Of a stretch of 64,000 bases of DNA, positions 298 through 22,178 are shown one piece after another. The notes below the pieces were generated by a model. The model saw nothing but the letters and a program-made list of their open reading frames with translations. It did no database searches and was not told the DNA's origin. How positions within the stretch are numbered: the first letter of the stretch is position 1; each line of letters starts with the position of its first letter. Source of the DNA: Bacilli bacterium (GTDB taxonomy: Bacteria > Bacillota_I > Bacilli_A > RF39 > UBA660); NCBI GenBank assembly GCA_030602345.1, contig JAUVZX010000004.1, forward strand, positions 202 to 64,201, read 5' to 3'. The translations under genes were made by a program, and so were the position numbers.

Positions 298-939
298 ATG
301 AAGAAATTAGTATTAATAGTTTTATCAATAGTAATTATTTCTGGCCTTTTTTATTTTTTGGCATATTTACCAGAACAAGCTAGAAAAATAAGAATAGCAG
401 AAATAAAAAAAGGTTGGCATGTGGAAATAACTACAAAAACATTAAACGTTAGAGAAACACCAGAGCCTTGGGGTGTTAAAATAGGAGAAGTGAAAGAAGG
501 TCAAGTTTATGAAGTTGTAGAAATGAATTTTTCTGATTTCTCGAGATTCTGGTATAAAATTAAGATAAATGACTATAAAGAAGGATGGGTTGCTAATCCA
601 AGAATTACAAAGGAATACTTGAATGATATAAATAATGATTTAGACATATCACCACCTACTTTAAAGTATTTTGAAGAAACATATTTTGTTAAAGATATAG
701 AATCTATTAATTATGATCATCTTGAAGTAACAGATGATAAAGATGGAGTAGTTGTTACTCATGTTATTTATCATGAGTATGAACCTAGTTCTGATCCTGA
801 ACTTCACAAAGACCAATATTGGATAGTTTATACTGCGACTGATACTTCAGACAAGAAGGTTTCTAAGACACAGGCTATTGTTTTTGAAAAAAGACCATCA
901 AAAAACCAAGTTATAGATTTTAAATTATTTAAAAAATAG
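298..939 (+). CDS. membrane-anchored SH3b + Ig-like (DUF5011-like) domain protein; paralog of 23242..23847
   Basis: 213 aa. N-terminal TM (LVLIVLSIVIISGLFYFLAYL). SH3b-like block GWHVEITTKTLNVRETPEPWG..GQVYEVVEM..WYKIKI..GWVANP. Ig-like block DISPPTL..YWIVYTATDTSDKKVSKTQAIVFE. Alignable end to end with 23242..23847. Confidence 0.6.
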   Translation: MKKLVLIVLSIVIISGLFYFLAYLPEQARKIRIAEIKKGWHVEITTKTLNVRETPEPWGVKIGEVKEGQVYEVVEMNFSDFSRFWYKIKINDYKEGWVANPRITKEYLNDINNDLDISPPTLKYFEETYFVKDIESINYDHLEVTDDKDGVVVTHVIYHEYEPSSDPELHKDQYWIVYTATDTSDKKVSKTQAIVFEKRPSKNQVIDFKLFKK

Positions 940-1024: not shown

Positions 1025-1534
1025 ATGGAAAAGTATTTCTTGCGTATAGGTTTTATCTTATATATCGTATTTGTAATATTTATAAATTTTTATATTTTAT
1101 CGTATAATTTTTTTGAGGTGGCAAATTTTGGAAAATATACTTTTTTTTCGTCATCTAAAATAAAAGATTATCAAAGAGGTTATTTTATTATTTCTTCAAA
1201 AAACAATAAAGATGTTAATGTCGGGGACACTATATACTTTTATAATAGTTATGAAGCAAAGTCAGAAATTTTAAGTTCTGTTGTTTTTGAAATAAGCAAG
1301 AATAACGAAAATGAAATAACATATCAAATAGAAAATAATAAACTATTATCATCATCTTATTTAATAGGAAAAGAAGATGATTTTACGAAAGTGCCTTTTA
1401 TTGGTTATACAGTTGATTTTGTAACATCTACGATAGGGTATTTTTTAACTATATTTATACCATTGTTGTGGTTATTTGGCTGTCGTGTTTTAAAGATTTG
1501 TACAAATAGTAAGGTGTTTAAAAATGTTGTTTAG
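1025..1534 (+). CDS. SipW-like signal peptidase I paralog, catalytically degenerate (pseudo-peptidase)
   Basis: 169 aa with N- and C-terminal TM helices around a SipW-like core (VGDTIYFY, YLIGK), alignable to 6063..6602. The SM(E/A)P serine box reads SSSKIKDY and the THR(I/V) histidine box reads LSSVV (His lost). Confidence 0.55.
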   Translation: MEKYFLRIGFILYIVFVIFINFYILSYNFFEVANFGKYTFFSSSKIKDYQRGYFIISSKNNKDVNVGDTIYFYNSYEAKSEILSSVVFEISKNNENEITYQIENNKLLSSSYLIGKEDDFTKVPFIGYTVDFVTSTIGYFLTIFIPLLWLFGCRVLKICTNSKVFKNVV

Positions 1535-2429
1535 TAAGAAGAATATAATAATTTTATTATTTGCTGTATTTCTTTTGATTATATCCCCAACTTTAGGAAG
1601 ATTTATATACTTTGAAGTTAGAGATATATATTTTAGAGTTCAAAATTTTTATTTTGAAAGTGATAAATTAAAAGTAAATAAGGCAACATATCAAGTTAAT
1701 AATTATAACGGTGTTGATAGTTATAATGTTGTTATTAATTTAAATAGTTTTAAAAACAATTTGCAAAAAGCAACCATGGATATAGCTTATGAAATAACTT
1801 TTACATGTTCTAATAAAGCAATTTGTGATGTTGATAAGGATGATGGAATAATTTATTCTTCAAATAACATGGATACTATCACAATAACGATAACTCCTAA
1901 TCAACAGTTAAATAACAATGATATTATTTGGATGGATGTGGTTGCAAAATCGACTTCACCATATGTTAAAGAAATAAGCGCTATATTTATTTTAAGAGTA
2001 GGTTTTTTGGGTTTGTCTCATGAAATCGCAGATGAAGTAGGAAGTCCTTACCTCGAAGTAAAAGTGGCGAACACTTTAGAGTATTATCGAGTAATAGAAG
2101 CTTTCGGCAGCTATAATGTAGAAGATAGAATAAATAGATCGACATATTTAACTCTTAGTGAAACAGATAAACAGAAATGTGTTTCATCATTTGTTAACTT
2201 ATCGTTTGACCCTGATTTGATAGTTATAGATATGACTGGGGAAATTTATTTAAGATCGACCAATCAAACAACTCAATCAATCGGGGGTCACAATTATTTA
2301 AATGGTTTAACTTTTAGAATCGATGCTCAAGACAGTGTAATTATAAGATTTTATAAAAAAAATTCACAGCAAAACTATACTTTTCCAATAATCAATCCAA
2401 CTTCGATAGTTGCAGTTACATATAATTAA
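1524..2429 (+). CDS. secreted/membrane-anchored beta-rich protein, possible distant TasA/camelysin-like component
   Basis: 301 aa. AAGGTG RBS 1511-1516; 11-nt overlap with the upstream gene. Hydrophobic N-terminus IIILLFAVFLLIISPTLG; N/T/Y-rich body. Occupies the slot held by 20354..20926 in module B. Confidence 0.4.
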   Translation: MLFSKKNIIILLFAVFLLIISPTLGRFIYFEVRDIYFRVQNFYFESDKLKVNKATYQVNNYNGVDSYNVVINLNSFKNNLQKATMDIAYEITFTCSNKAICDVDKDDGIIYSSNNMDTITITITPNQQLNNNDIIWMDVVAKSTSPYVKEISAIFILRVGFLGLSHEIADEVGSPYLEVKVANTLEYYRVIEAFGSYNVEDRINRSTYLTLSETDKQKCVSSFVNLSFDPDLIVIDMTGEIYLRSTNQTTQSIGGHNYLNGLTFRIDAQDSVIIRFYKKNSQQNYTFPIINPTSIVAVTYN

Positions 2430-2438
2430 GGAGGACTT

Positions 2439-3419
2439 ATGCAGGTAAATATTTTAAACGAATATATTAATTTTTCCAAAATGTGTATTGAAAAATATGC
2501 TAAGAAAATATTAGATAAACATTACGATGAAGATATTTTTAATCATTATATGAAAATATATATTGATAGAAGATATTATGGTAATGGGTTTTTAGATTTT
2601 GATAAAAGTTTTTCATATTTTATTGCATATGAACTTAGGAAATACTATGAGACAAGCGAATATATAGAAAATGATAATGCTGCAAAAATGCTTAAAGTAT
2701 TTAAGTATATTTTATATTTTGATAATGTAAAAGAAACAGAATCAATGAATAAAGTTATCGCAGAAGTAGCTATTTTCAGAAAAGAAGAATTATTATTGAA
2801 TGATAATTCTAAATTTTCAAAAGAATTGTTATCAATGGTAAGAGATGATTTACTTCTAAAAAGAGAATTTATTGAAAAATTTCATATGGAAACATTTAAT
2901 ATGTGGTTTTATTTAACAGATTTAGAAAATGTTTATGATTCTGTATTGGAATCAACAATCAAATTTCCTAAATTATACAATAAAAAATCAATAAAAAAAG
3001 TATTTGATTCTAAAGATATAAAAGAAGAGCGTCAATTTGTAGAATATTGTTATGTTGCTTCTCACATACTATTAGATATTATAAAGGGAGATTTTAAAAA
3101 ACAATATATGGTTAGTTTTTCTCCTTCTTTAGTAACTAAGAAAACAAAAAACAAACAAGTAATGAATGTTATTGATAATGATATAGCAAAAGAAAAATTA
3201 GTTATTAAAATCAGTTATAAAGATTTCATTTCTTCTAAGGAAGAATATTATTCGAAGATGAGAATAGGTTTTAGATTTGCTCTTATCATAGATGAAGCTT
3301 TTGAAGGAAGAGAAGAAGACTTCAAAATTTTAGAAGCTTTTAAATACATAATAATTAGTAGCAAATCAATTTATTATGAAAGGATATCAAGTGATAACGT
3401 TGTAGTTACCTTGAAATAG
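2439..3419 (+). CDS. hypothetical cytoplasmic protein (no TM or signal peptide)
   Basis: 326 aa; AAGGAGGA RBS 2428-2435. The C-terminal half (..YMVSFSPSLV..LVIKISYKDF..GFRFALIIDEAFEG..FKYIIIS) only faintly recalls an EAL/TIM-barrel strand pattern, without the catalytic residues. Confidence 0.45.
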   Translation: MQVNILNEYINFSKMCIEKYAKKILDKHYDEDIFNHYMKIYIDRRYYGNGFLDFDKSFSYFIAYELRKYYETSEYIENDNAAKMLKVFKYILYFDNVKETESMNKVIAEVAIFRKEELLLNDNSKFSKELLSMVRDDLLLKREFIEKFHMETFNMWFYLTDLENVYDSVLESTIKFPKLYNKKSIKKVFDSKDIKEERQFVEYCYVASHILLDIIKGDFKKQYMVSFSPSLVTKKTKNKQVMNVIDNDIAKEKLVIKISYKDFISSKEEYYSKMRIGFRFALIIDEAFEGREEDFKILEAFKYIIISSKSIYYERISSDNVVVTLK

Positions 3420-3426
3420 TGATTAG

Positions 3427-4920
3427 ATGGAAGCATTCTTTAAATTTTTATATGAAATTTTATCATTATTTTTTGGTGGAATTTTTAACATTTTCAAAGG
3501 AATTTTTGATGGCTTGGTTCAAATGTTTAATTATAATTCCTACATTAGAGTATTAAATCAATACAAAGGCGAATTCAATGGTTCAGATTGGATATTTGTA
3601 GTAATGGCAATCGGATCTATTGTTATAATACTTAGTCTTACAATAGTATTGATTGTTCTTCTGGCGAGAAAATATATCAAATTCCGAAAAGGGTTAGTTG
3701 AGCAAGAAGAACTTTTAAGAGAGGTTTCTGCTTTGAACGAAGAAGTAGTTAAACTAATGAAAGAAAAAGATAAAATAATGTCGATCAGAGGTCCAATTCT
3801 TGATGGTGAAAATAACGAAGAAGACGCGATTAATACGGAAAACACACGTTTTTCTAAATTAACAGCGATCGATGTTCTTTATCATAATGTTCCCAAGAAA
3901 GATTTTGGTAATGACTTTACTTTAGAACAGTTAGTAGATATGTTTAGAAATTTTTCTGCCTACTATCTTCGTTTATATTATCGTGAAGAAATGATTAGAT
4001 TGTTTATTGCTTCATTAGCTTCAACAAAATTAATTATTTTACAAGGTATTTCTGGAACAGGTAAAACTTCATTAGCTTATGCGTGGGGTAAATTTTTACA
4101 AAATGATTCATGTGTTGCTTCTGTTCAACCTTCATGGAGAGATAGAACGGAATTATTTGGTTATTTCAATGAATTTACTAAAAAGTTCAATGAGACTGAC
4201 GTTTTAAAAGAAATATATGAAGCTGGATATACTGATGATATTTATACAGTAATTCTCGATGAGATGAATATTTCGAGGGTAGAATATTATTTTGCTGAAA
4301 TGCTATCTATTTTGGAAATGCCAAATAAAGATGAATGGAAAGTAGAATTAGTAGCTAGTGGTTGGCCAAACGATCCAAAAAAATTAATGGATGGTAAATT
4401 AAAAATTGCTCCTAATGTCTGGTACATAGGAACAATCAATAACGATGACTCAACATTTATGGTAACCGATAAGGTTTATGACCGTGCAATGCCTATTGAT
4501 ATTAATGAAAAAGGACAAGTGTTTGATGCTAAAGATATTCCTGCTCAAAAAATAAATTATAGTTACTTAGATAATTTATTTACTCAAGCATTAAAAACTT
4601 ATTCAATTTCAGAGGAGACTTTATCTAAAATTGAAGTAATGGATGATTTTGTTATTAGACATTTTAGAATAGCATTTGGTAACCGTATTGTGGCTCATAT
4701 GAAAAGGTTTGTGCCCGTTTATATGGCGTGTGGTGGTGATGAACTAGATGGAATTGATTATTTCCTTTCTAGAAAAGTATTACGTAAGTTTGAACAATTA
4801 AATATTGCGTATATTCGTGATGAGATAGATAATTACATAGACTTTTTAGATAAGACATTCGGAAAAGAAAGAATGAAAGAGTGTCAAGAATATTTAAGGA
4901 GACTTAAGAAAAGCGTTTAG
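3427..4920 (+). CDS. membrane-anchored McrB-family AAA+ (GTPase-type) protein
   Basis: 497 aa. Two N-terminal hydrophobic helices (second IFVVMAIGSIVIILSLTIVLIVLL followed by RKYIKFRK), then a short coiled coil. Walker A GISGTGKTS; Walker B and McrB-type extension VILDEMNISRVEYYFAEMLSILE; YIGTINNDDSTFMVTDKVYDRAM resembles the McrB NxxD / R-finger block. Confidence 0.75.
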   Translation: MEAFFKFLYEILSLFFGGIFNIFKGIFDGLVQMFNYNSYIRVLNQYKGEFNGSDWIFVVMAIGSIVIILSLTIVLIVLLARKYIKFRKGLVEQEELLREVSALNEEVVKLMKEKDKIMSIRGPILDGENNEEDAINTENTRFSKLTAIDVLYHNVPKKDFGNDFTLEQLVDMFRNFSAYYLRLYYREEMIRLFIASLASTKLIILQGISGTGKTSLAYAWGKFLQNDSCVASVQPSWRDRTELFGYFNEFTKKFNETDVLKEIYEAGYTDDIYTVILDEMNISRVEYYFAEMLSILEMPNKDEWKVELVASGWPNDPKKLMDGKLKIAPNVWYIGTINNDDSTFMVTDKVYDRAMPIDINEKGQVFDAKDIPAQKINYSYLDNLFTQALKTYSISEETLSKIEVMDDFVIRHFRIAFGNRIVAHMKRFVPVYMACGGDELDGIDYFLSRKVLRKFEQLNIAYIRDEIDNYIDFLDKTFGKERMKECQEYLRRLKKSV

Positions 4921-4935
4921 TAATGGAGGTGTAGG

Positions 4936-6066
4936 ATGAAAGAATTAAAAATTATTGATTTATATCAAAAAACTAATGAGCAAAAATTAAATTCTTTCTC
5001 TGAAACTTTAAATTCTTCAGTGGAAGTATCACATGTTTATAGTGATTATATATATGACGATGAGTGGATGACAAAGATAGAAAATGGTGTTAGATATATT
5101 GAAAACATTCTTAGAAATCCTAATCGTTTTATCATCAATGAAGAGGATGTTGTAAAAATTGAATTAGCTAGAAAAATTACTGTGGATAGTATTAAACATT
5201 TGTCTAAAAATACTAACTTGATTCAAGATATAGATAAGTACACTGGAGATGTTAAGCCTTCCAAAATATTAAATATTAATAAAGAAGAAAGCTTTAATAC
5301 ATATGAAAATCGTTTTATATATAGTTTAATTAAAAATTTAGATTTATATATCAATAGAAAAAAACAGTTAATTAATAGAAGTTTTTTCTATGCAAATGAT
5401 AAAGAAATAAAATATAAAGGAACAACGGAATTATCTAATGAAAAAGTAGATATTTCCATTAATCTAAATACTAAAATAATGGATTCTGAAAAAGTTGCTC
5501 AAGAAAAAATAGAGAGAATTTTAGAAAGAATCAAAAGCGTAGAAGACAGAATAACCGATTTAAAACAGTTTGAAGTTTTTTCTATGTTAAATAAAGCAAA
5601 TACTAGCCTAGTTACTTCACCGATCAAGAAGACGAATGTAATTTTAAAAAATGTAAATTTCCAAAATGCTGTTGAACTATGGAATTATATTCAAGTCAAT
5701 ATGAATGATAATTCAAAAGTGTCTAACAGTGATAAAAGACTAGATGATGATCCAGAAATAAAGGGTTTAATCGATGAAATTTTTATGATGAATTATTTGG
5801 TTGCGAGATCCCTCGATCAAGATGAAGAAGACGAAGAAAAGAAAAAAGCAGTCTCTGGATTTTTAATTAATAATCTTGTTCAAAAAATGGTTCAAACTAA
5901 TTCTGATTTAACTCAAAAAGAATTAACTGATATGATTAAAAAAGAATTTATTTATATTAGAAAACAAGATATGGTTAGTACTAGAGAAATCAAAAATATA
6001 TTTAAAGGAGCTATTAAAGAATATCGAAAAATGGCTAATAATAACATATTGAGGAGTAAAAAATGA
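4936..6066 (+). CDS. McrC N-terminal/DUF2357-like partner protein with no recognisable nuclease domain
   Basis: 376 aa; GGAGG RBS 4925-4929. Motif ESFNTYENRFIYSLIKNLDLYI. C-terminal half is K/E-rich coiled and acidic (DQDEEDEEKKK) with no PD-(D/E)xK pattern seen. Stop overlaps the sipW start (ATGA 6063-6066). Confidence 0.45.
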   Translation: MKELKIIDLYQKTNEQKLNSFSETLNSSVEVSHVYSDYIYDDEWMTKIENGVRYIENILRNPNRFIINEEDVVKIELARKITVDSIKHLSKNTNLIQDIDKYTGDVKPSKILNINKEESFNTYENRFIYSLIKNLDLYINRKKQLINRSFFYANDKEIKYKGTTELSNEKVDISINLNTKIMDSEKVAQEKIERILERIKSVEDRITDLKQFEVFSMLNKANTSLVTSPIKKTNVILKNVNFQNAVELWNYIQVNMNDNSKVSNSDKRLDDDPEIKGLIDEIFMMNYLVARSLDQDEEDEEKKKAVSGFLINNLVQKMVQTNSDLTQKELTDMIKKEFIYIRKQDMVSTREIKNIFKGAIKEYRKMANNNILRSKK

Positions 6067-6602
6067 AAAATAATTTAATAATTAGAAGTATCTTTTTTAT
6101 AGCGAAAACAATAGCAGTATTATTTGTTGTTGGAATTTTCTCTATTATTTTAGTTCAAAGAGTTTTTAATAACAACGTTTCACTATTTGGTTATAGAATA
6201 TTTACAGTTGTAACTCAAAGTATGGAACCAGATTATATGGTTTCCGATATCATTATTTCCAAAAATGTTGATACTAATACATTGAAAGTTGGAGATGACG
6301 TTGTTTATCTGGGTAAAGTTGGTACTTTTGAAAATAAAATAGTTACTCATAGAATAATTGAAATAGTAGAAAATGACGGACCGAAAGAATTTTACACTCA
6401 AGGCATTAATAATACCGGAGTAGATCCTGTCGTGACGGAAGATCAAATATATGGAGTTGTTCTAGGAAAGAGCAGTATTTTAAGTTTTTTAAGTAAACTA
6501 GTTAGCACTCCGTTTGGTTTTATGTTGCTAGTTTTATTGCCTGGTTCTATTTTAATAGCAACTGAGATATTCGATAAATTTAACGAAAAAGAAGAAGAGT
6601 AA
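6063..6602 (+). CDS. sipW: signal peptidase I, SipW (ER/archaeal) type, catalytic residues intact
   Basis: 179 aa. N- and C-terminal TM helices; Ser box VVTQSMEPDY; His box VTHRIIEI; later YTQGINN..DP block. Confidence 0.8.
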   Translation: MKNNLIIRSIFFIAKTIAVLFVVGIFSIILVQRVFNNNVSLFGYRIFTVVTQSMEPDYMVSDIIISKNVDTNTLKVGDDVVYLGKVGTFENKIVTHRIIEIVENDGPKEFYTQGINNTGVDPVVTEDQIYGVVLGKSSILSFLSKLVSTPFGFMLLVLLPGSILIATEIFDKFNEKEEE

Positions 6603-6603
6603 C

Positions 6604-7191
6604 ATGAAAGCATTTTTTTCAAAAAATAATCTTAGATTGAACTTTTTATTGATGATGGCAATATTGTTATCATTTAATTCTTTTGCGTGGTTTGTATATT
6701 CTTCAAGAGTTGCAAATAGTATTACAACTAGAGTAAGAGGTTGGAAAGTTAATTTTGAATCCGGAGATAATCAAGTAGCGGAATTCATCAATTTTAATGT
6801 TGATGCTTTGTATCCGGGAATGGCCGAATATAACAATGCAATCAATATAATTAACTATAGTGAGGTCCCGGTTAATTTAACTTACGAAATAGTCAGCATA
6901 AAAATAATGGATGAAATATACAACGGAGAGGATTATCAATTGGTTGATTTACTTGATATGTTGAGCGACGATTTTCCCTTTTCTATTAATTTTGAATTAA
7001 CAGAATCTATATTGCCGCCCAATCAAGGAGAAAGTGATTTCCTTATAAATATAATTTGGCCATTTGAAAGTGGAGATGATGAAGCTGATACTTATTGGGG
7101 CAACTTAGCTTATGATTATGCACAAGAAAACCCGGCATCACCGGGCATTGTAATTTCAGTAAGATTATTTGCTACACAAGGAACGCCTTAA
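6604..7191 (+). CDS. TasA/camelysin-like secreted protein (small subunit type 1)
   Basis: 195 aa; 1-nt gap after sipW. N-terminus KNNLRLNFLLMMAILLSFNSFAWF resembles the SipW-cognate signal class. LYPGM and beta-sandwich-like alternating pattern. Confidence 0.6.
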   Translation: MKAFFSKNNLRLNFLLMMAILLSFNSFAWFVYSSRVANSITTRVRGWKVNFESGDNQVAEFINFNVDALYPGMAEYNNAINIINYSEVPVNLTYEIVSIKIMDEIYNGEDYQLVDLLDMLSDDFPFSINFELTESILPPNQGESDFLINIIWPFESGDDEADTYWGNLAYDYAQENPASPGIVISVRLFATQGTP

Positions 7192-7772
7192 TTAATCACT
7201 TGAGAGAAATTAATTAAAACATTCATTTTGGCTTTGCCATCTGATAGAGCAGCTATTGTGTCATCTACATTATTTGAAGAAGAATCATCCCATTTTATAT
7301 AAAGGCGGATGGTTCTTGTTTTATTTTGAGCATCTAATAAGATTGTTTCATCATAATCGGTTATCATTCCACCAACGTTATTCATTGCTCCACCATCTAT
7401 CGTATAACCAACTACAATTAGATCGCTCACAGCACTTTCAGCATTTATTGAAGTGATTAAAGAATAATTAAAGGATACATCAACATTAGTTGCATCTATA
7501 TTTAAATCGAAATATCCAACTGCTCCGGGAGCGATTACTCCATCGGCAACATTACTATTATTAAGAAATATAGGAGTAAGAACATTATTTATTTGATTAT
7601 TTGAAATTATATCTTGGTTATTGACTATTATATTCCATCTTGCAATAGAAATATTCGTTTCACCACTTGCTTCACTTCTATATTTTGAATAAGTATCTTG
7701 AACTGTTGAAATTAAAAGAAGGAAAGAAATAAGTGCAATCAAAAAACCAGTTTTTTTATCTCGCTTCATCAT
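7188..7772 (-). CDS. TasA/camelysin-like secreted protein (small subunit type 2), inverted relative to the operon; paralog of 20354..20926
   Basis: 194 aa; GGAGGA RBS on the minus strand just upstream. N-terminus KKTGFLIALISFLLLISTVQDTYSKYRSE. IARWNIIVNN and APGAVGYFDLNIDA match LADWQILVNN and APGLDGYFEIILDP in the module B paralog. Confidence 0.55.
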   Translation of the reverse strand: MMKRDKKTGFLIALISFLLLISTVQDTYSKYRSEASGETNISIARWNIIVNNQDIISNNQINNVLTPIFLNNSNVADGVIAPGAVGYFDLNIDATNVDVSFNYSLITSINAESAVSDLIVVGYTIDGGAMNNVGGMITDYDETILLDAQNKTRTIRLYIKWDDSSSNNVDDTIAALSDGKAKMNVLINFSQVIN

Positions 7773-7915: not shown

Positions 7916-8620
7916 ATGGCGAAGACGATTAAAGCAAAATCAAAAAAATTACAAAGACGTGATCTTTTAATTAAAAGAATAACAAGAGTAATAATAATCT
8001 TGTTTTTAATCTTGCTTTTTTTCTATATAATAATCGGTTCAATGTTTAAGGGAGGTAGATTTTTTATCGCGGTCGATCCTAACTTTTCACTAGAAACCGG
8101 AATCTTTATGTATGATGACAAAGAAATTAAAAATAATAAACCGTTGCTATACGTTGATGAGATAGATTTTATGGATAATATTTCTGTTAATTGGATTCCA
8201 AAAGATATTGGTGATCACCCTGGGGGAAGTCATAATGGTCAAAATTATATTGCCTATACATTTTATTTGGAAAATTTTGGTAAAAGAACAGTTGATTATT
8301 GGTATGAAGTAAATATTGAAGATGTTATTAAAAATGTTGATGAAGCAATTAGATTTATGATTATTTTAAATGGAGAAACTAATATATATGCTAAGGAGAA
8401 TAAAACAACAAAAGAAGCAGAACCTGGAACTATAAAGTTTTTTGATAAAAACAAACCAGTATTAGCAAAAAGAGAATTAATGAAATCTGGAGATGTTGAT
8501 AAATTAACAATTGTGATTTTTTTAGAGGGTGACGATCCAGAATGTACTGATGACATACTCGGTGGAAAAATTAAAGCTCACATGAGAATTGTTGAAAGTC
8601 ATTTAGATCAGGAAAGTTAA
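7916..8620 (+). CDS. membrane-anchored member of the large TasA-like subunit family (candidate fibre base/anchor)
   Basis: 234 aa. Basic cytoplasmic N-tail, then TM (VIIILFLILLFFYIIIGSMF) without a FAWF-type motif. Shares YIAYTFYLENF and C-terminal LTIVIFLEGDDPECTDD blocks with 8622..9596 and 22179..23162. Confidence 0.45.
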   Translation: MAKTIKAKSKKLQRRDLLIKRITRVIIILFLILLFFYIIIGSMFKGGRFFIAVDPNFSLETGIFMYDDKEIKNNKPLLYVDEIDFMDNISVNWIPKDIGDHPGGSHNGQNYIAYTFYLENFGKRTVDYWYEVNIEDVIKNVDEAIRFMIILNGETNIYAKENKTTKEAEPGTIKFFDKNKPVLAKRELMKSGDVDKLTIVIFLEGDDPECTDDILGGKIKAHMRIVESHLDQES

Positions 8621-8621
8621 G

Positions 8622-9596
8622 ATGAAAAAAAATAAAAAAGTAATTTCTATAATATGGTTTTTATTCACTGCGATAATGCTGTCGTTTAGTTCGTTCGCTT
8701 GGCTATCAACAAATAGAGTATTAGGATTTCAATCTTTTAATATTCATATCGCTTCAAGAGGAGGAATCGAAGTCTCTGTCGACGCAGTTGATTGGAAATC
8801 AGTTATGACTTTAACTGATTTGATTCAAGCTAATCAAACATATCCAAGTAGTACAAATCAAATTCCTAGATTATTGAGACCGGTTTCTACTTCTGGCGAA
8901 GTTGAAAATGGTAGATTAAGAATGTTCTCAGGAAGAGCACTTTATGATTATGCATCATCTAACATGATAATTGCAGCAGAAAGAAGTAATGAAAGAGAAG
9001 GTTTCGGTCAAAATAGTAATGGTGCTTTTATAGCTTTTGATTTATTTTTTAGAAATCAAACAGATATGACCTTATTTTTAAGCCCGGCATCGACAATAAC
9101 ACCTATTGGTCAATCATCAGGAATTGAAAATGCTTTAAGGGTAGCTTTTTTAAAACAAGGAACGCTTCCTTCTACGGCTAACTTAAGAGACATTCAAACA
9201 ATGTCTGGTGCAAATTCATCAATCATCTGGGAACCCAATTATGAAAGACATACAGAGTCTGCAATTGCTCATGCAAGGGATACATATGGATTAAACATTA
9301 GTAATAATTTTAATAGAATTATATATAGTGGTATTAGAAATGAGATTTTATCTTTTGAAAGAATATCTTTAAGAGGTTCAAATGCTTATAATTATCCCAA
9401 TAAATTTAGACAAGTTTCTGTTGATATAGCAACGAGATCTAATTTTAATAATTTAGAAGAAATAATGATAATCAATCCGGGTATAACAAAAGTTAGAATA
9501 TATATTTGGATTGAAGGACAAGATATAGACTGTGAAGATAATGCTTCGTTAGGGAGTTTGTTAATAAATTTACAATTGAGTGCTGAATACTTATAG
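8622..9596 (+). CDS. large TasA-like secreted subunit (paralog of 22179..23162)
   Basis: 324 aa. N-terminus KKNKKVISIIWFLFTAIMLSFSSFAWLSTNR. Blocks GGIEVSVDAVDWKS, AFIAFDLFFRN, IIWEPNYERHTESAIAHARDTYGL and KVRIYIWIEGQDIDCEDN all align with the 22179 paralog. Confidence 0.6.
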   Translation: MKKNKKVISIIWFLFTAIMLSFSSFAWLSTNRVLGFQSFNIHIASRGGIEVSVDAVDWKSVMTLTDLIQANQTYPSSTNQIPRLLRPVSTSGEVENGRLRMFSGRALYDYASSNMIIAAERSNEREGFGQNSNGAFIAFDLFFRNQTDMTLFLSPASTITPIGQSSGIENALRVAFLKQGTLPSTANLRDIQTMSGANSSIIWEPNYERHTESAIAHARDTYGLNISNNFNRIIYSGIRNEILSFERISLRGSNAYNYPNKFRQVSVDIATRSNFNNLEEIMIINPGITKVRIYIWIEGQDIDCEDNASLGSLLINLQLSAEYL

Positions 9597-9604
9597 GAGG
9601 TCAC

Positions 9605-12600
9605 ATGAAAAAAAAGATTAAAGATAATCAAAGAAAATTATATATATTGTTTTCATTTTTATTTTTAGTTGTTTTTTCTGTGACTTTTTCTTTAACTTAT
9701 GGTCAAAGAAATGACCCATCAATAGTATTTATTGATGATAAACTTAATGGTGTAATTGAAAATGTAGTTCACATAAATGATTTGAATGCTGATTATTATT
9801 ACTATAAAGGAATGAATTTTACAAATAGTGGTGACGGTTCTTTACCGACTATAAATGATAAGAATGTTTATCCTGATAATAGATTGGTAGAAGTTCAAAT
9901 AACTTATAGTGGATTCGATCCAAATAGTGGGTACAGAGGTTATGTATCTTTGGGAGAACTTCAGGATACTTTCATTTATTATAAAGTTTTTCCTGTCAAT
10001 GATAATGGAACCCCATCAAATTTAAGTGATGATTATATTGAAATAGAATTAATTGAAAATCCTTTTACTAATAGGCCTACAAATAGAGGTTTTAATGGTT
10101 GGAAAACTAGTTATAGTGGAGCAGAAATTAGTCTTGATAGAAGTTATTATATAAGATATGCAAAAGTGCCAGTTTCGTACTCAGGTCAAAAACCTAACAA
10201 AGTAGAAATTAATTTTAATGCAACCTGGATACCAGCTTCTGTTTCGTTAGTTAACAGCAGTAGAACATGGGCAACTGCTTTTAATGATTTAGATACCGTA
10301 GGAATGAAGTCTGTTCAAACAGTAGTTGGACAAACACCGCTTCCCTTAAATATGAATGGTTATTTTAGAGAAGTAACGGTTAATTATAATCAGTCATATA
10401 TTGGATATTATGATGGAGGCGGAAATATAATTGAAGATCCCTCAAATCCAAGTTTTTGTGTGGAATGGTTTGTTCCTGTTGGGGCGGAATATTATAATGC
10501 TAGTGGTACTCTTCAAATAACACAAGCTGGAAGCGGAACCATCTGTTCTAAAGCAGGAATGATAGTTTTTAAAGATGATACAACCTATTCTAATATAGCA
10601 ACTTCAGGCGGACAGTTTAATGTTTTAGTTGTAGCTGGTGGAGGTAGTGGAGCTAGATCGAGTAATACCAGTGCCGGAGGCGGTGGAGGAGGAGCCGGAG
10701 GATTAATTCTTCGAGAGGAACTCTATATTGAATCTGGTAACCAAACATTAACAGTCGGTTCTGGTGGAATTGCCAACCCATCTTCTGAAAGAAACAATGG
10801 TCGAAATGGAGATGATACTATAGCCTTCGGTCTTCAAGCAATTGGAGGTGGAGGCGGAGGAGCAACCTCAAATGGATTGACTGGATTAACTGGAGGTTCT
10901 GGTGGAGGAGGAGGAGCCAGAAATGGTTCTGGCGGAAGCGGCACCTCTGGACAAGGAAGTAACGGAGGAAATGGTTCTCCTGCAAACACTGGAGATAACG
11001 GTGGAGGAGGAGGAGGAGGATTCTCTCAAGTTGGTGGAGTCGGAACTACAAACGGTTCTGGTGGAGCCGGCGGAAACGGTTTTAACGGTTCTTCATTATT
11101 TGGAACAAGCGTTGGTGAAAATGGTTGGTTTGCTGGTGGAGGAGCCGGCGGAATTTCTGGTTCTCGAACTATGGGTCTTGGTGGACTTGGTGGAGGCGGA
11201 AACGGTGGTATCGGAACTACAGCAGGTCAAAGTGCCATGGCAAATACCGGAGGCGGAGGAGGAGGATCTCCTCGTTCTAACTTTGGTGCCGGAAATGGTG
11301 GTTCAGGTGTTGTCATTGTCCAATGGGATGAGAGCATTCAAACAAGAATTTGTGATAATGTAAATGGATGTACTTTCTACGAAGTTATAGGAAATGAATA
11401 CTATAATTCTTCTTTAACATATTATGAAGTTGTAAATGGTCGATTAGAAGAAGTTAATCCTGATAATTTACCTTTCGAATATGAACCAACATATTCTGAT
11501 GATTTTACTCCAAGTTCAAATATGTCAACTTTTTTTAGATTAATAAATATACCCAGATTTAGTTCTGTTGAAGGATATTATGATAATTTAGGTAATGTTC
11601 AAAGTGGAACTTGTAGCACTATTGGAGGATGTAATTTATATGAATTAATCCAATATAGAAACAGTTCAAATCAATTAGAAACAATAAATCAATATGAAAC
11701 ATATTATTATTTACCTACTAGGGATACCAATATAATTGTTATGACTACTAATTTAAGTAATACTTGGGGAACGGCACAAACAAAACCCTTTACACTAACA
11801 AGTGTTCATAATGGTGTCGATTATCGTGGTTCTGTATTATGGACAGTTAACTTAGCGGTTAATACATATGGAGATACGAATATTGAAAATATTAGAATGA
11901 CTACGACTGAAGCGGCGAATAATACAACTCCTCCATCATCAGGGACAACGACAACGAGAAATTTTTATGGAAGATGGAATAATATAAGGTTTGGTCGAGG
12001 GATTACTCAAAATGGAACTCAAACTAACTTTAGAACAATAATTGGTGGAGCAAATGCAGCAACAGGAAGTAGTTCTAATATAACTAAATATCGAGTTATT
12101 GTTGAGTCAGGAAGATATAGCACTTTTTCTTTAGGAAATAGTGGTGGAACCGCTAATACTTATATTGAAAATAAAGCAATATATGGAAATGATTACGATA
12201 GAGTAACCCAAAATAATAATAATTTATATGTTAACTTTGTTGCATCAGGTAGCTGGGGAGGAAACGTTTATTCTTCTTCCAATACAGCGCCTATTTTCGA
12301 CTTGGTTGTCAAAAGTGGAGAATTTGGTGGAGGAAGGTCAGATCATACGACTGGAATTTATGTTGGAGGACGTGGAGGAGGAACTCATTATGGTCCACGT
12401 GTTGCTAAGATAGAAGGTGGCTGGATTTATAATTTAATCGGGGGACCTCTAACAGCATCAACTAAAGGAAATTTAAATGACTCCTTGATATATATGACTG
12501 GGGGAGAAGTCGATGTAATAATCGGAGGAGCCGGAACGTCTGCTACTTTTGGTCACAGAATTATCCAAGTGACTGGAGGAAGAGTAAATTATTCCGTATT

Positions 12601-18249: not shown

Positions 18250-19755
18250 ATGGAATTAAAAGAAAAAATTATACAGCAAATCAAACTGGATCAAGAAATT
18301 CTATCTTCTATGCCAACTAATAATAATAAAAACAAATTACTTAAAAATGAAAAATTAGATGAAAAATTAGTTTTCTATGAGAAAATAAAAGAAAAAATAA
18401 CAGCAGAATTATTAAAAAGAAGTAATTATTTTGAAAACCTAAAAATAAACAATGAAATTTTAAAATTAAAAAAAGATATTGTTGTTATTGAACACCAAAT
18501 AATGCTCCTCAACGATACAAATTCTTCATATGAAAAATTAGGACTAGATAAGATAGTTTATGATATAGGAAAATATTATAAGAATAAGTTAGAAAAAGTA
18601 AACTTCGATATATATAAAGCAATTATGATTTTTAAAGATGCCGGAATTAAATTATCTAAGGAAGAATTCATTTATAGTGAATTTGGAAAAGAATATATGG
18701 AAATTTTTCTTACTGAAACAAGAAGCATAGATTCTTTAGAACTTCGAGAAAAGTTTGAAAGTATATATTGGAAACAACCAGAAGTAATGAAATATATTCA
18801 AAATAATTTCAGATATTTATATAGAATTCATAAAAAAGAATTAAAAAACTATATTATTTCAGAAATAAATAAGAATAAAGAGAACAATCTAACAAAACTT
18901 TTACTAAAACATTCTCAAAAAAGAAAAGAATTAAAAGATTTAATTTCAAAAGATGAATATCTTTATTTACAAAAGTTCATTAATAAAGAAATCAGAATAG
19001 ATGACTTTGATGAGAGTAAGTTTGTAATTAAATATAATAATTTAGTTAGCGAGGGAATTTCTAGGGAAAACGCTATATTATCAATTAAAAGTTTAAATAA
19101 TACAACAAAAGAATACAGAGATTATCTTAAATATAAGTTTATTATAGAAGATATAACTAAGATATATGAAAGCAAGGATCAAATTAAATCGTCTAAAATT
19201 AAACTAAAAGAGATAAAACAAAGAGAAGATCAATTAGAAATAGATTCTGGAAAAAAGAAAAAACTATTTGGTAATAAAAAAATTGATAGAGATGATATTG
19301 TAGGAGAATTAGAAAAACTCTACTTAGAATTAGATGAAATAATATTTATTGAAAAAGTTAAAGAAAAAATAAAGAAAACATCCAAAGTAATTGATGTATT
19401 AAGTTTGGCTTCATCATATCATTCATATGTAGCTTCTTTATTGAAGAGAAGGGAACCTGAAATTACGGATGAAAATATATATTTATTTTTCGAAGAATTA
19501 AGATTATTTGCGCTAAATTTAGATAATAATTTGGTTTCTAACTTAAATGTTTTTGAAGACAGTGATTTACCAATGATAATAAGTGATAAATACATACTGG
19601 ATGGTTTGAAAGTAAGTATAGATGATTTTATTGGAAATAAAATAGATGATTTAATTGCAGCAACAGAATGGATTATTAATTATGAGAATAGCCTTGCTAT
19701 TCCAATTAAAAAAATGAATGATTATTTATTGATAAAGGATAAATTAATAGTTTAA
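18250..19755 (+). CDS. K/E/I-rich coiled-coil cytoplasmic protein of unknown function
   Basis: 501 aa; no TM or signal; long heptad-like K/E/L/I stretches. Last gene of module A. Confidence 0.45.
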   Translation: MELKEKIIQQIKLDQEILSSMPTNNNKNKLLKNEKLDEKLVFYEKIKEKITAELLKRSNYFENLKINNEILKLKKDIVVIEHQIMLLNDTNSSYEKLGLDKIVYDIGKYYKNKLEKVNFDIYKAIMIFKDAGIKLSKEEFIYSEFGKEYMEIFLTETRSIDSLELREKFESIYWKQPEVMKYIQNNFRYLYRIHKKELKNYIISEINKNKENNLTKLLLKHSQKRKELKDLISKDEYLYLQKFINKEIRIDDFDESKFVIKYNNLVSEGISRENAILSIKSLNNTTKEYRDYLKYKFIIEDITKIYESKDQIKSSKIKLKEIKQREDQLEIDSGKKKKLFGNKKIDRDDIVGELEKLYLELDEIIFIEKVKEKIKKTSKVIDVLSLASSYHSYVASLLKRREPEITDENIYLFFEELRLFALNLDNNLVSNLNVFEDSDLPMIISDKYILDGLKVSIDDFIGNKIDDLIAATEWIINYENSLAIPIKKMNDYLLIKDKLIV

Positions 19756-19760
19756 AATAG

Positions 19761-19789
19761 TTGCAAGTAAAAGGGTAAAATGATATAAT
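19761..19789 (+). promoter_or_regulatory. strong sigma-A type promoter for module B
   Basis: TTGCAA 19761-19766, 17-nt spacer ending TGA (extended -10), TATAAT 19784-19789; GGTGGG RBS; ATG 19807. Confidence 0.7.
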
Positions 19790-19806
19790 CAAGAAAAGGT
19801 GGGAAA

Positions 19807-20352
19807 ATGAAAAAAGTATTGAAAATTGTCGGTTGGTCGTTATTAGCAATTATTATTGCTGTAGATATATTTGTTACTGTTTATTTATTAAATTTTAATA
19901 ATTTTGCAGTATCACAAATCGGAAAGTACACTTTTCTAGTAATAGATGAAAAAGTTGCTGATTTCGATAAGAATGATTTAGTTATCGTTAAGAAAAATGA
20001 TAATAAGGAAATAGAAGTTGGAGATTATATATTCTTTTATGATGTTAAATCAAAAGAAAATGTAGTTAATTATGGAAAAGTAAATAGTGTATTTGAAGTA
20101 AATGAAAAAGAATCAACATTTACTATGAGTGATAATCTTCCTTTATCTAGTCAATATGTGATTGGAAAAAGTGAAACGGCATCATCATTCGCGTACTTAG
20201 GGTTATTACTATCTGTATTATCTTCACAATGGGGATTCTTATTCTTAGTAATATTTCCAATATTAATTTTATTCTTATATCAAATTAATATATTTATTGC
20301 AGAACTTCAAGCCGAAAAAAAACAATCAAAAAATAAAAAAGAAAAAGAGTAA
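19807..20352 (+). CDS. SipW-like signal peptidase I paralog, catalytically dead (pseudo-peptidase)
   Basis: 181 aa; N- and C-terminal TM helices; paralog of 1025..1534 (IGKYTFLV, VGDYIFFY, YVIGK). Glu sits at the catalytic Ser position (VIDEKVADF vs TQSMEPDY) and Asn at the His position. Confidence 0.55.
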   Translation: MKKVLKIVGWSLLAIIIAVDIFVTVYLLNFNNFAVSQIGKYTFLVIDEKVADFDKNDLVIVKKNDNKEIEVGDYIFFYDVKSKENVVNYGKVNSVFEVNEKESTFTMSDNLPLSSQYVIGKSETASSFAYLGLLLSVLSSQWGFLFLVIFPILILFLYQINIFIAELQAEKKQSKNKKEKE

Positions 20353-20353
20353 T

Positions 20354-20926
20354 ATGAAAAAAATATTACCTCTTTTATTATTGACGTTATTAATTATATT
20401 ATTCGGACAATTAGCTTCTACTTATGGTATTTTTGAGACCAATGTTGATGTTGGCTCGGAAATAGAGTTGGCAGATTGGCAAATATTAGTTAATAATATA
20501 AATTTAAATGAAGAAGAGCAAGAATTTAATATTACCAATATTCTATGGGATACAAATAGTAATGTATTGCCGGGCAAAGCTGCTCCGGGATTAGATGGTT
20601 ATTTTGAAATAATATTAGATCCAAGAACAACACAAGTAGCTATAGAATATGAAGTTACTTTTGAGTTCTCAGAATTAGAAAATTCAAATATCTATATAAC
20701 TTCAGTAAAAGATAGAAATAATAATGATATTTTAATTGTCGATAGTGAAACCTATGCTTCTTCAATGACTTTGGAAGAAGTTCAATTAAATCAAATAGAA
20801 ATAATTAAAGTTTCCTTTACTTGGGAAATGGATGAAGAAAACAGCATTATTGACTCTGGCACAGTTAATATTCCTGATTCTAATCTAGTAATACCGGTTA
20901 GACTGAGAGTCTTTCAAAAAATTTAA
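20354..20926 (+). CDS. TasA/camelysin-like secreted protein (small subunit type 2)
   Basis: Start moved to ATG 20354 (MKKILPLLLLTLLIILFGQLASTYGIFE), 1 nt after the upstream stop. The ORF-track start 20297 would overlap the upstream gene. Paralog of 7188..7772. Confidence 0.55.
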   Translation: MKKILPLLLLTLLIILFGQLASTYGIFETNVDVGSEIELADWQILVNNINLNEEEQEFNITNILWDTNSNVLPGKAAPGLDGYFEIILDPRTTQVAIEYEVTFEFSELENSNIYITSVKDRNNNDILIVDSETYASSMTLEEVQLNQIEIIKVSFTWEMDEENSIIDSGTVNIPDSNLVIPVRLRVFQKI

Positions 20927-20944
20927 CAACAAGGGGTTGTTAGC

Positions 20945-21508
20945 ATGCTAAAAGTAAACACTATGCTAAAAGTAGTTGAAAATATTTTAATGGTTATTTT
21001 TGTAGTAACCATTTTTATAGTGGCTTATAACTTTTTACAACTAAAACTATTAAATAAGGACTATGTAAGTTTTTTCGGTTATTCTTTTTTTGAAGTAATT
21101 AGTGACAGTATGGCTCCGACATTAACAAAACAAGACGTTATAATAATTAAAAAAAATGATAACTATATAAAAGATAGTATAATCACATATAAGGCTAACA
21201 ATGCTTTTGTGACGCATAGGGTGATAGAAGTTAACTCTAACTTTTATTTAACCAGAGGAGACGCTAATAATGCTACTGATGTGCCTGTTTTAAAAGAAGA
21301 TGTAGTAGGAGAAGTAGTAATTACTTTAAAAGGACTTGGAATTTGGAGAAATATTTTATTGGATCCCCAATTTCTAATTGTATTAATAATATTAGTAGTT
21401 ATTATTAATAGTTATTTCTTTAAAGATGGGACTCTAAAAGAATATAACAAAAATAAATTCAAGAAAGACTTTAAAACTAGTCATAAAAAAATTATTGAGG
21501 AATTATGA
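20945..21508 (+). CDS. sipW: signal peptidase I, SipW (ER/archaeal) type, catalytic residues intact
   Basis: 187 aa. Ser box VISDSMAPT, His box VTHRVIEV, RGDANN..D block, two TM helices. ATGA overlap with the next gene. Confidence 0.8.
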   Translation: MLKVNTMLKVVENILMVIFVVTIFIVAYNFLQLKLLNKDYVSFFGYSFFEVISDSMAPTLTKQDVIIIKKNDNYIKDSIITYKANNAFVTHRVIEVNSNFYLTRGDANNATDVPVLKEDVVGEVVITLKGLGIWRNILLDPQFLIVLIILVVIINSYFFKDGTLKEYNKNKFKKDFKTSHKKIIEEL

Positions 21509-22089
21509 AAATATTATCTATTCTTAAAATAAAGAAAAGAGTGACTAAAATAATAGTAATAATATTTTTATTATTATTTAGTTTTGTGGTGATTCCTTAT
21601 GCATATTCTAGATATGAATCTTCAGCTACATCAAATCTTGTCGCTCCAATAGCGCACTATTTATTAAAAGCAGATTATATCCAAACAAATATCGAAGTGG
21701 GAACTATAGTTCCTTCTGACGATCCTTATATATATACATTTACAATTTCTAATAATTATCAAGGAAGAAGAACAGAGATTAATCTGGAGTATGATGTAGC
21801 AATTAGAACCACTACAAATTTACCTTTGGAATATGAATTATATATAAATCAAGATTATGAACATCCATCTTCAACTTCATCTATTATAAGTGATGAATAT
21901 ATACAAGATGATCATAATACTTATTTTAGGGAATTGAAAGTAGCTAGAGAATATTTTAACTTTACACTTGATGAAATTAATAATTATACGCTAGTTGTTC
22001 GATTTCCCAGTCAATATAAGGTTAATAATTATGAAGAGATAATCGAAAGTGTTGAAATAATAATTGACTCTAGACAAAAGGTTGACTAA
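21505..22089 (+). CDS. secreted protein, probable TasA/camelysin-like small subunit
   Basis: 194 aa. N-terminus KKRVTKIIVIIFLLLFSFVVIPYAYSRYESS (compare TYSKYRSE in 7188..7772). Beta-rich body. Confidence 0.45.
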   Translation: MKILSILKIKKRVTKIIVIIFLLLFSFVVIPYAYSRYESSATSNLVAPIAHYLLKADYIQTNIEVGTIVPSDDPYIYTFTISNNYQGRRTEINLEYDVAIRTTTNLPLEYELYINQDYEHPSSTSSIISDEYIQDDHNTYFRELKVAREYFNFTLDEINNYTLVVRFPSQYKVNNYEEIIESVEIIIDSRQKVD

Positions 22090-22104
22090 AATTTACAAAA
22101 AAAG

Positions 22105-22133
22105 TTGTAATGTAAAAAAAAAAATGCTAAGAT
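22105..22133 (+). promoter_or_regulatory. candidate internal promoter for the large TasA-like subunit gene
   Basis: TTGTAA 22105-22110, 17-nt spacer ending TGC, TAAGAT 22128-22133. An 89-nt gap precedes the gene. Confidence 0.4.
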
Positions 22134-22178
22134 AAAACTAGATAATATGAAACCATATTATATAGAGAGGGGATTACA

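Follow-up and report, generated by a model that had tools for sequence, protein, structure and literature searches.

The window analysed here, a stretch of 64,000 nucleotides of contig JAUVZX010000004.1 from a Bacilli bacterium of the RF39 lineage (GenBank assembly GCA_030602345.1), encodes a predicted membrane-tethered McrB-like AAA+ GTPase and, directly downstream, a McrC-like DUF2357 protein in which no nuclease was detected. Both genes are part of a conserved block that also encodes the archaeal/ER-type signal peptidase SipW and its probable substrates (Table 1). The pair very probably belongs to the CoCoPALM class of McrB homologues and is thus a rediscovery of a named, uncharacterised class. 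For its function we favour, with a probability of roughly 0.55, a nucleotide-driven membrane machine coupled to SipW processing or to the assembly of surface-fibre subunits.

The class was introduced by Bell, Sahakyan, Makarova, Wolf and Koonin (eLife 2024;13:RP94800; PMC11090510) within the NxD branch of McrB GTPases, where it forms a large clade. Its members are NxD McrB GTPases fused to an FtsB-like transmembrane (TM) and coiled-coil domain, and signal peptidases occur in association with them. The single paragraph devoted to the class predicted a link to pilus assembly, the analysis being put off to "a separate, forthcoming publication" (PMC11090510). Our literature search found neither a CoCoPALM follow-up nor any other paper in which the name has this meaning, a search for PDC-M26 returned no papers, and the supplementary text of Bell et al. 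contains no CoCoPALM entry. We assign the window pair to this class because of its affinity to McrB, its NxD signature, its TM helix and helical linker, its DUF2357 partner and the adjacent signal peptidase. It shares with CoCoPALM an NxD GTPase in which an N-terminal TM segment and coiled coil replace the DNA-binding domain, a McrC homologue consisting of DUF2357 and a helical/coiled-coil part, and the tight link to a signal peptidase, and nothing contradicts membership. A reading of this DNA made from the sequence only had described the arrangement as unexplained, but the class itself had already been named. Beyond the description by Bell et al., the present analysis adds the RF39-type 11-gene architecture, the gene g2439, catalytically dead SipW paralogues, fusions of the McrC-like protein to SipW, and exceptional loci without SipW.

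The McrB-like GTPase and its DUF2357 partner

E. coli McrB (6HZ4, 6UT6, 7VSR) was the sole PDB sequence match of the GTPase (phmmer, E 5.9e-4, residues 183-359), and a profile of 25 family sequences retrieved McrB from the PDB sequences with E 3.8e-6, the runner-up reaching 0.11. Alignment of the GTPase with E. coli McrB by hhalign gave a probability of 96.4% (E 1.2e-9, 190 columns). Furthermore, the PADLOC candidate PDC-M26A matched the GTPase core with E 3.3e-34, covering residues 182-301 only. Pfam yielded generic P-loop matches, none above a gathering score and with AAA_5 absent at E <= 0.1, and a PHROGs search likewise returned weak generic P-loop matches and nothing more. On these sequence comparisons the relatedness to McrB is real and the product is a predicted McrB-family motor, as the sequence-only reading had proposed.

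The sequence contains the protein motifs quoted in that reading. Across 25 aligned sequences, with identities as low as 34%, the key residues of these motifs show no or almost no variation. In the Walker A motif, G207, G210, G212, K213 and T214 are invariant and I208, S209 and S215 nearly so, and the Walker B segment ILDEMN, whose aligned counterpart in E. coli McrB is IIDEIN, holds the invariant D278 and N281 and a nearly invariant E279. The signature region had been taken for the NxxD form typical of McrB; the actual motif is the NxD variant, in which N338 (the sensor-1 Asn) and D340 are fixed and position 341 is D, E or Q among the 25 aligned and 38 inspected relatives, corresponding to the pattern GT[IAV]N-x-D-[DEQ]-ST. 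The NxD signature of the branch is usually followed by D or E (PMC11090510). R353, G418 and R420 are also invariant, and N419 nearly so. With all of these residues conserved, the GTPase looks catalytically competent, as every residue for hydrolysis is present.

Within the N-terminal 160 residues, an amphipathic helix is followed by a TM helix, a coiled coil and an acidic linker; no known domain matched this part. Two hydrophobic helices had been noted in this region, one of which is the single clear TM helix (residues 61-79, peak mean Kyte-Doolittle value 3.04), whereas the other (residues 3-34) is hydrophobic and strongly amphipathic but remains below the TM threshold. Five lysine or arginine residues within positions 81-95 stand against a net neutral segment at residues 1-55, and one TM helix combined with this positive-inside distribution suggests that the N-terminal 55 residues, which are conserved and include the nearly invariant Y46 and W55, could face outside. 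The TM helix is joined to the AAA+ core by a coiled coil of about 35 residues with the conserved pattern LLxEVxxLNxxVxxLxxEKxxILAMK and a moderate heptad score of 0.6. No DNA-reading domain was found in either protein, in agreement with the sequence-only reading, and in the GTPase the TM helix occupies the corresponding position.

HMMER searches of 1.84 billion cluster representatives retrieved 8249 GTPase relatives (50%-identity clusters, covering the wider superfamily), 741 of them at E <= 1e-30. These relatives include TM-tethered forms, forms with a signal peptide, an ectodomain of about 300 residues and a TM helix (P0129 and P0133), multi-TM forms with 5-10 helices (P0161, P0166, P0170, P0238, P0254 and P0257), and long coiled-coil forms resembling CoCoNuTs. 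As their N-terminal membrane parts differ greatly, the membrane/outside-facing module is the variable part of the GTPase family.

The partner matches the Pfam model DUF2357 (PF09823) at residues 54-148 with 44.8 bits against a gathering score of 23.3 (E 1.1e-11), and precomputed annotations carry PF09823 on all 120 partner homologues among the matches listed. The earlier assignment to the McrC N-terminal domain thereby holds: DUF2357 is that domain, described as a helix bundle whose stalk enters the McrB ring and activates it (PMC11090510). Residues 57-126, where conservation of the partner is highest, contain the motif NTYENRF, and the TYEN of NTYENRFIYSLIKNL is invariant. The AlphaFold monomer model has a pLDDT of 70 overall and values below 50 at residues 66-99 and 104-117, and such a conserved stretch modelled with low confidence is consistent with a stalk that depends on its partner, by analogy with the McrBC structures as summarised in PMC11090510. 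Residues 184-209 form a long helix in the model and have a heptad hydrophobic score of 0.875, although the coiled coil is short; longer relatives of the partner match coiled-coil Pfam models, and a coiled coil has been described for the CoCoPALM McrC homologue as well (PMC11090510). In one high-GC relative (L081:2681-4036), the McrC-like C-terminus is fused to a ribosomal L15/L27A-like domain (PF00828, E 7.2e-15, residues 378-446).

The absence of a nuclease noted from the sequence was borne out by every search: the partner matched none of the nuclease families in Pfam, 52 aligned partner sequences share no conserved D...(D/E)xK block, PDB sequences gave no match to the single sequence or its profile, and Foldseek of the model against the PDB retrieved neither a match at E <= 0.001 nor a nuclease among its top matches. 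The pair resembles E. coli McrBC, a Type IV modification-dependent system, in its Walker A and B motifs, in the sensor-1 Asn signature with a conserved Arg after it, and in the separate DUF2357-type partner encoded immediately downstream. In contrast to E. coli McrBC, it lacks a DNA-binding domain and a PD-(D/E)xK nuclease, carries NxD instead of NxxD, is predicted to be membrane-anchored, and is the operon partner of a signal peptidase rather than of restriction-modification genes.

Conservation of the SipW-associated gene block

The four open reading frames from the GTPase to g6604 lie where the sequence-only reading had placed them (Table 1), and the four junctions it described can be read directly from the sequence. 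The gene g2439 ends with TAG at 3417-3419, 7 nt ahead of the GTPase start codon (ATG 3427), the GTPase gene (TAG 4918-4920) is separated from that of its partner (ATG 4936) by 15 nt holding a GGAGG, the partner and sipW share an ATGA stop/start overlap (6063-6066), and 1 nt lies between the end of sipW (TAA 6600-6602) and g6604 (ATG 6604). SipW was rightly taken for an active type, as judged from its TIGR02228 score of 69.5 bits (cut-off 51.85) and its conserved catalytic Ser (QSMEP) and His (VTHRI).

A reference scan with one genome per GTDB species detected the GTPase in 156 species, and 80 loci were examined. They include Clostridium sp. CAG:914, CAG:628, CAG:567 and CAG:451, uncultured Tenericutes and metagenome-assembled genomes (MAGs) of Bacilli with chromosomes of about 1.26 Mb, all of which we take to be RF39-type Bacilli with reduced genomes. 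Where contigs allow, the core order pseudo-SipW, g1524, g2439, GTPase, McrC-like protein, SipW and g6604 is retained in 80/80 loci, usually followed by g7188 on the minus strand, g7916, g8622 and a giant protein. The giant-protein module lies upstream instead in about nine loci, and the seven-gene core is never interrupted. Syntenic homologues among the 80 loci numbered 59 for pseudo-SipW (by tblastn), 75 for g1524 (37-54% identity), 77 for g6604 and 69 for g7188, with a syntenic N-terminus of the giant protein in 44 and a signal peptidase associated in 78. The gap between GTPase and partner ranges from -1 to 28 nt in nearly all of these loci. With 62-70% identity across the 80 species, the GTPase is the best-conserved protein of the block, its neighbours sharing 24-67% and typically 30-55%. 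Furthermore, full-length GTPase homologues form more than 8000 clusters at 90% identity, are about 68% identical, and where named derive from "Mollicutes bacterium" or "Bacilli bacterium" MAGs.

The association extends to other lineages. A metagenome scan seeded with diverse TM-type GTPase relatives yielded 80 loci with a G+C content of 0.26-0.58, which were annotated with hidden Markov models (HMMs) of the RF39 families. A DUF2357-type partner lies within 400 nt downstream of the GTPase in 75/75 loci, a SipW-family gene ends within 400 nt upstream of the GTPase in 56/65, and one starts within 400 nt downstream of the partner in 35/57. Among the 36 well-flanked loci (at least 3 kb upstream and 5 kb downstream), 35 contain a SipW-family gene and 35 a pilin-like gene of the g7916/g8622 type. 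In most metagenome loci, over the entire G+C range (0.26-0.58), a g7916-family gene neighbours SipW and the McrB-like gene, and g8622-type genes often flank the module in two or three copies in other lineages. The cross-lineage core is hence g8622-like, g7916-like, SipW, McrB-like, McrC-like and SipW, and g1524, g2439, g6604 and g7188 are additions of low-GC lineages. The pair is thus integral to a SipW operon rather than a sporadic mobile cassette beside unrelated genes, the outcome that the sequence-only reading had named as contrary to its proposal. Among 2.9 million viral contigs, only 12 distant GTPase relatives with 25-36% identity were found, on which ground a phage-borne origin was rejected for the close GTPase family.

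Three metagenome loci (L128:9610-12576, L129:9594-12545 and L135:1948-5118, with G+C contents of 0.50, 0.41 and 0.43) encode the McrC-like protein and SipW in a single open reading frame of 984-1057 aa. Each comprises a McrC-like domain (family HMM E ~1e-54, Pfam DUF2357), a long linker, a TM helix and a complete SipW that keeps the GSMEP serine and the VTHRI histidine. The resulting topology is sensible, as DUF2357 would be located inside the cell and the peptidase domain outside. Of all the evidence for a joint complex of the McrC-like protein and SipW, this Rosetta-stone fusion is the strongest.

A further conserved gene, g2439, which the sequence-only reading had missed, lies directly upstream of the GTPase in 79/80 reference loci and encodes a cytoplasmic protein without a TM segment as a third module component in low-GC lineages. 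It matched neither Pfam, where the best hit was under the cut-off, nor the PDB. Homologues of g2439 also precede the GTPase in distant low-GC loci where no SipW gene was seen, with hhalign probabilities of 95.7% (E 8.5e-9) in locus L082 and 79.7% in L166. A degenerate EAL (cyclic di-GMP) domain, considered owing to motif resemblance and a weak Pfam match in 1/35 members (E 0.014), was rejected after an hhalign probability of 0.08% with E. coli PdeH, and a HEPN domain was rejected for the lack of an invariant His and of an Rx4-6H motif.

A proposed fibre-assembly machine and its alternatives

We infer a mechanism in which the McrB-like GTPase, anchored by one TM helix, would form a membrane-tethered ring, and the McrC-like stalk would plug into this ring and activate the GTPase as in McrBC. 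The C-terminal half of the McrC-like protein would be physically coupled to SipW in the membrane, and GTP turnover would gate or drive the SipW-dependent processing and assembly of the exported SFA|W subunits encoded around the pair. In low-GC lineages g2439 would act as a third subunit modulating the machine from the cytoplasm, and candidates for subunits that hold precursors or serve as a platform are g7916 and the dead SipW paralogue. The sequence-only reading had offered two functions, an export or assembly motor for fibre subunits and an envelope-linked defence module, of which the comparative data favour the first. A specific role in SipW-dependent fibre processing or assembly is nearly an even bet, on the lower side.

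Several known systems share parts of this design. The tapA-sipW-tasA operon of B. subtilis likewise encodes a dedicated archaeal/ER-type signal peptidase together with its fibre substrates, of which the window encodes candidates, and the SFA|W signal resembles the SipW-cognate class (TIGR04088). The dead signal-peptidase paralogue of the window recalls the SipA/LepA pilus chaperone of S. pyogenes, where SipA is a signal-peptidase-like protein essential for pilus polymerisation (PMC4049620). In contrast to the window block, the B. subtilis and S. pyogenes systems contain no nucleoside triphosphatase (NTPase); moreover, the candidate substrates of the window are not detectably TasA or camelysin homologues and the block has no sortase. 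Type IV pili and archaella (PilB, FlaI) offer a purely functional analogy, combining a hexameric cytoplasmic NTPase at the membrane, a leader peptidase and pilin-like substrates with an N-terminal hydrophobic helix. They differ in that the window encodes an McrB-type AAA+ protein rather than PilT/VirB11, a serine (S26) rather than an aspartic (A24) peptidase, and no platform protein. Tentatively, the pair might represent a restriction motor that has been repurposed as the engine of a third, hitherto unrecognised Gram-positive surface-fibre machinery, neither sortase-dependent nor type IV, in which the GTPase ring, with the McrC-like stalk as its shaft, would be mechanically coupled to SipW and cleavage would be coupled to the polymerisation of SFA|W subunits.

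Several points weigh against a fibre-assembly machine. Fibres of the TasA donor-strand type form without cytoplasmic energy, which leaves no obvious need for a motor, and a threading mechanism is unlikely because McrC occupies the ring pore in McrBC. The putative fibre subunits match no solved pilin or TasA in PDB profile and Foldseek searches, and the window itself contains a second SipW/fibre gene set that has no McrBC-like pair. Furthermore, hhalign of the partner against E. coli McrC was negative, so that its McrC homology rests on the Pfam DUF2357 model, and E. coli McrC may be too distant for a direct match. The comparison of the GTPase family with E. coli FtsB gave a probability of 0.4% in what is a low-sensitivity test with a single-sequence template, and the absence of a nuclease fold from the partner is a moderately strong negative, as the model is mediocre (pLDDT 70). 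Finally, some loci carry the trio of g2439, GTPase and McrC-like genes in other surroundings. In two loci of a low-GC subclade (L166:2328-13810 and L168:3711-11868) it lies without SipW among cdsA, rseP, a gene for an ftsI-type penicillin-binding protein (PBP) with PASTA domains, and mraY, and in a 39%-identical relative (L082:721-8267) it directly follows a prophage cassette of tail (DUF859), holin and M23-LysM endolysin genes, on a contig that stops before any SipW gene could be seen. These exceptions keep envelope-biogenesis and defence readings alive for some subclades.

The second function proposed earlier, an envelope-linked anti-phage or abortive-infection module, would sense phage at the fibre or membrane, such as phages with the fibre as their receptor, and stop fibre production or kill the cell via a non-nuclease effector. 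The descent of the module from McrBC restriction systems is in its favour, as are the PADLOC match of the GTPase core and the prophage-adjacent locus, where the trio stands at a place typical of morons or defence genes. The CoCoNuTs, the closest relatives of the module described so far, are themselves predicted to serve in defence (PMC11090510). The window GTPase belongs to the same NxD branch as CoCoNuT (CnuB/CnuC) and PDC-M26 proteins, and its core is 35-45% identical to those of long coiled-coil relatives. CoCoNuTs, however, have coiled coils of hundreds of residues, no TM helix and always a HEPN domain or other nuclease, none of which applies to the window module, and Pfam, PADLOC and NCBIfam searches found no HEPN or nuclease family in any neighbour of the pair. 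There is thus no recognisable effector, as the pair contains neither nuclease nor HEPN and g2439 has neither a family match nor an invariant His, and the PADLOC match is confined to residues 182-301 of the GTPase, PADLOC searches of the partner and of g2439 giving no match. The rigid synteny (80/80 species, 35/36 metagenome loci) and the high GTPase identity, the top conservation of the block, do not fit a defence cassette of sporadic occurrence or fast evolution, for which patchy distribution and fast turnover would be expected. The module is also almost absent from viral contigs, and the SipW fusion has no obvious defence rationale. We therefore regard a defence function as unlikely.

About equally unlikely is a general regulator linked to envelope biogenesis or cell division, in which an FtsB-like module would organise membrane or septal processes and SipW and the fibre would be one of several clients. 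The N-terminal domain was called FtsB-like by Bell et al. (PMC11090510), the diverse N-terminal membrane and ectodomains of GTPase relatives suggest a variable membrane-side partner, and in L166 and L168 the trio lies among genes for CdsA, RseP, an FtsI-type PBP and MraY. The negative FtsB alignment speaks against this regulator as well. Moreover, the division-gene context is confined to these two closely related loci, compared with 35/36 loci with SipW, and the McrC-like::SipW fusion links the module to this peptidase in particular.

The same synteny and fusion would also suit a signalling or quality-control checkpoint rather than a motor, which would act from the outside in and couple the state of fibre precursors to turnover or to SipW activity. 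The conserved N-terminal 55 residues of the GTPase (with Y46 and W55) may face outside, and the conserved dead SipW paralogues could sense precursors, for which S. pyogenes SipA provides a precedent (PMC4049620). Sequence alone cannot separate checkpoint and motor, the module contains no regulatory output domain, and we consider a checkpoint improbable. A conventional Type IV (McrBC) restriction enzyme lying in the operon by chance, as the McrB-type core and DUF2357 partner might suggest, is effectively refuted by the TM helix in place of the DNA-binding N-terminal domain, the lack of a PD-(D/E)xK block or nuclease fold, the NxD instead of NxxD signature, and the conserved, non-island-like context.

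If the fibre-assembly model is true, the McrBC architecture would here have its first task outside defence and nucleic acids, and monoderm bacteria would have a new, NTP-dependent way of building surface fibres. The module is abundant, widespread in uncultured Firmicutes of the gut and highly conserved in human and animal gut lineages without cultured representatives, including the reduced-genome RF39-type Bacilli, and the fibre it would serve therefore likely matters for colonisation or cell-cell contacts. For annotation, homology alone should not label such pairs as restriction or defence systems. The seven-gene core, g2439, the conserved dead SipW paralogue, the SFA|W site and the McrC-like::SipW fusion provide starting points for further work.

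Neighbouring genes and other features of the window

Table 1. Position and basis of assignment of the features in the window.
Feature	Position	Strand	Basis or size
Pseudo-SipW, dead paralogue, first gene of the conserved block	1025..1534	+	Weak TIGR02228 similarity, far under cut-off
g1524, conserved, N-terminal TM/signal segment at residues 7-25	1524..2429	+	Family unassigned
g2439, cytoplasmic protein, third module component in low-GC lineages	2439..3419	+	326 aa; 7 nt upstream of GTPase gene
McrB-like AAA+ GTPase, NxD type, predicted membrane-tethered; probable CoCoPALM McrB homologue	3427..4920	+	497 aa; PDB, hhalign and PADLOC matches
Predicted TM helix of GTPase, ~residues 56-80, RKYIKFRK on cytoplasmic side	3592..3666	+	Hydropathy and charge
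Short helical coiled-coil linker of GTPase, ~residues 89-122	3691..3792	+	Conserved pattern, L103 invariant
Walker A GISGTGKT, G207-T214	4045..4068	+	25-sequence alignment
Walker B D278-E279 in ILDEMN	4258..4263	+	E. coli McrB has IIDEIN here
NxD signature N338-N339-D340, followed by D341	4438..4446	+	N338 and D340 invariant
McrC-like partner, DUF2357 and helical/coiled-coil C-terminal half, without nuclease	4936..6066	+	376 aa
Most conserved stretch of partner, residues 57-126, candidate stalk into GTPase ring	5104..5313	+	Invariant columns N57 to N125
Archaeal/ER-type signal peptidase SipW, predicted active, ATGA-coupled to partner gene	6063..6602	+	179 aa
g6604, predicted secreted/membrane-anchored beta-sandwich, invariant SFA|W site	6604..7191	+	195 aa
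g7188, small exported protein, convergent gene	7188..7772	-	N-terminal hydrophobic segment
g7916, bitopic membrane protein, basic cytoplasmic tail	7916..8620	+	TM residues 25-43, score 3.09
g8622, candidate fibre subunit, SipW-cognate type signal (SFA|W)	8622..9596	+	TIGR04088 and conserved site
Glycine-rich repeat surface protein, 2840 aa	9605..18127	+	N-terminal hydrophobic segment; Pfam Gly_rich_2 1.1e-15
Second, paralogous SipW/fibre gene set, without own McrBC-like pair	18250..23162	+	Paralogy to first set

In g6604 and g8622, the motif (S/T)-F-A|W closes the N-terminal hydrophobic segment, with A28 and W29 invariant in g6604 and A26, W27 and F28 invariant or nearly so in g8622. TIGR04088 (cognate_SipW; SipW-dependent-type signal peptide-containing protein) matches 7/33 members of the g8622 family with a best E of 2.8e-4. 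Based on these signals, both proteins are predicted to be probable SipW substrates of unassigned fold family. The AlphaFold model of g6604 (pLDDT 80.3) comprises an N-terminal helix and a beta-sandwich. The sequence-only reading had called g6604 TasA-like, a label that found no support: no Pfam family matched any of 34 members, and Foldseek of the model against the PDB returned nothing at E <= 0.001 and no TasA in the top 50. Profile searches of g2439, g6604 and g8622 against PDB sequences likewise gave nothing, and g1524 had no hit above a curated cut-off in Pfam or NCBIfam.

The window encodes two pseudo-SipW paralogues (1025..1534 and 19807..20352), which are 31% identical to one another and in which both the SM.P serine and the THR histidine are replaced, also in orthologues of other species. 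They are thus conserved pseudo-peptidases and may act as precursor-binding assembly factors by analogy with S. pyogenes SipA. The second of them is located in the paralogous SipW/fibre gene set, which lies behind the giant gene. This set further encodes a helical cytoplasmic protein of 501 aa, two exported proteins of small size, an apparently active SipW (20945..21508; Peptidase_S24 match, Ser and His present) and a g8622 paralogue with 38% identity (22179..23162). Furthermore, g7188 shares 30% identity with the 20351..20926 stretch of the open reading frame 20297..20926, its paralogue.

The G+C content of the region is about 26-31%, matching the rest of the low-GC window. A scan for promoters and terminators found nothing above chance, which is neither for nor against a single operon. 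The sole G+C-rich hairpin in the first 10 kb (7130..7146) is readable on both strands and is situated at the convergent ends of g6604 and g7188, which overlap by 4 nt; it could be a bidirectional terminator, although the number of hairpins is not above chance. Within the gene for the glycine-rich giant protein, the G+C content rises to 0.40-0.45 at 10000..11500, compared with about 0.27 around it, which corresponds to the GGx codons of Gly_rich_2 and creates spurious long open reading frames in other frames. A region of about 23.5 kb that holds both gene sets is bracketed by two SH3_3 proteins (298..939 and 23242..23847), which are 57% identical.

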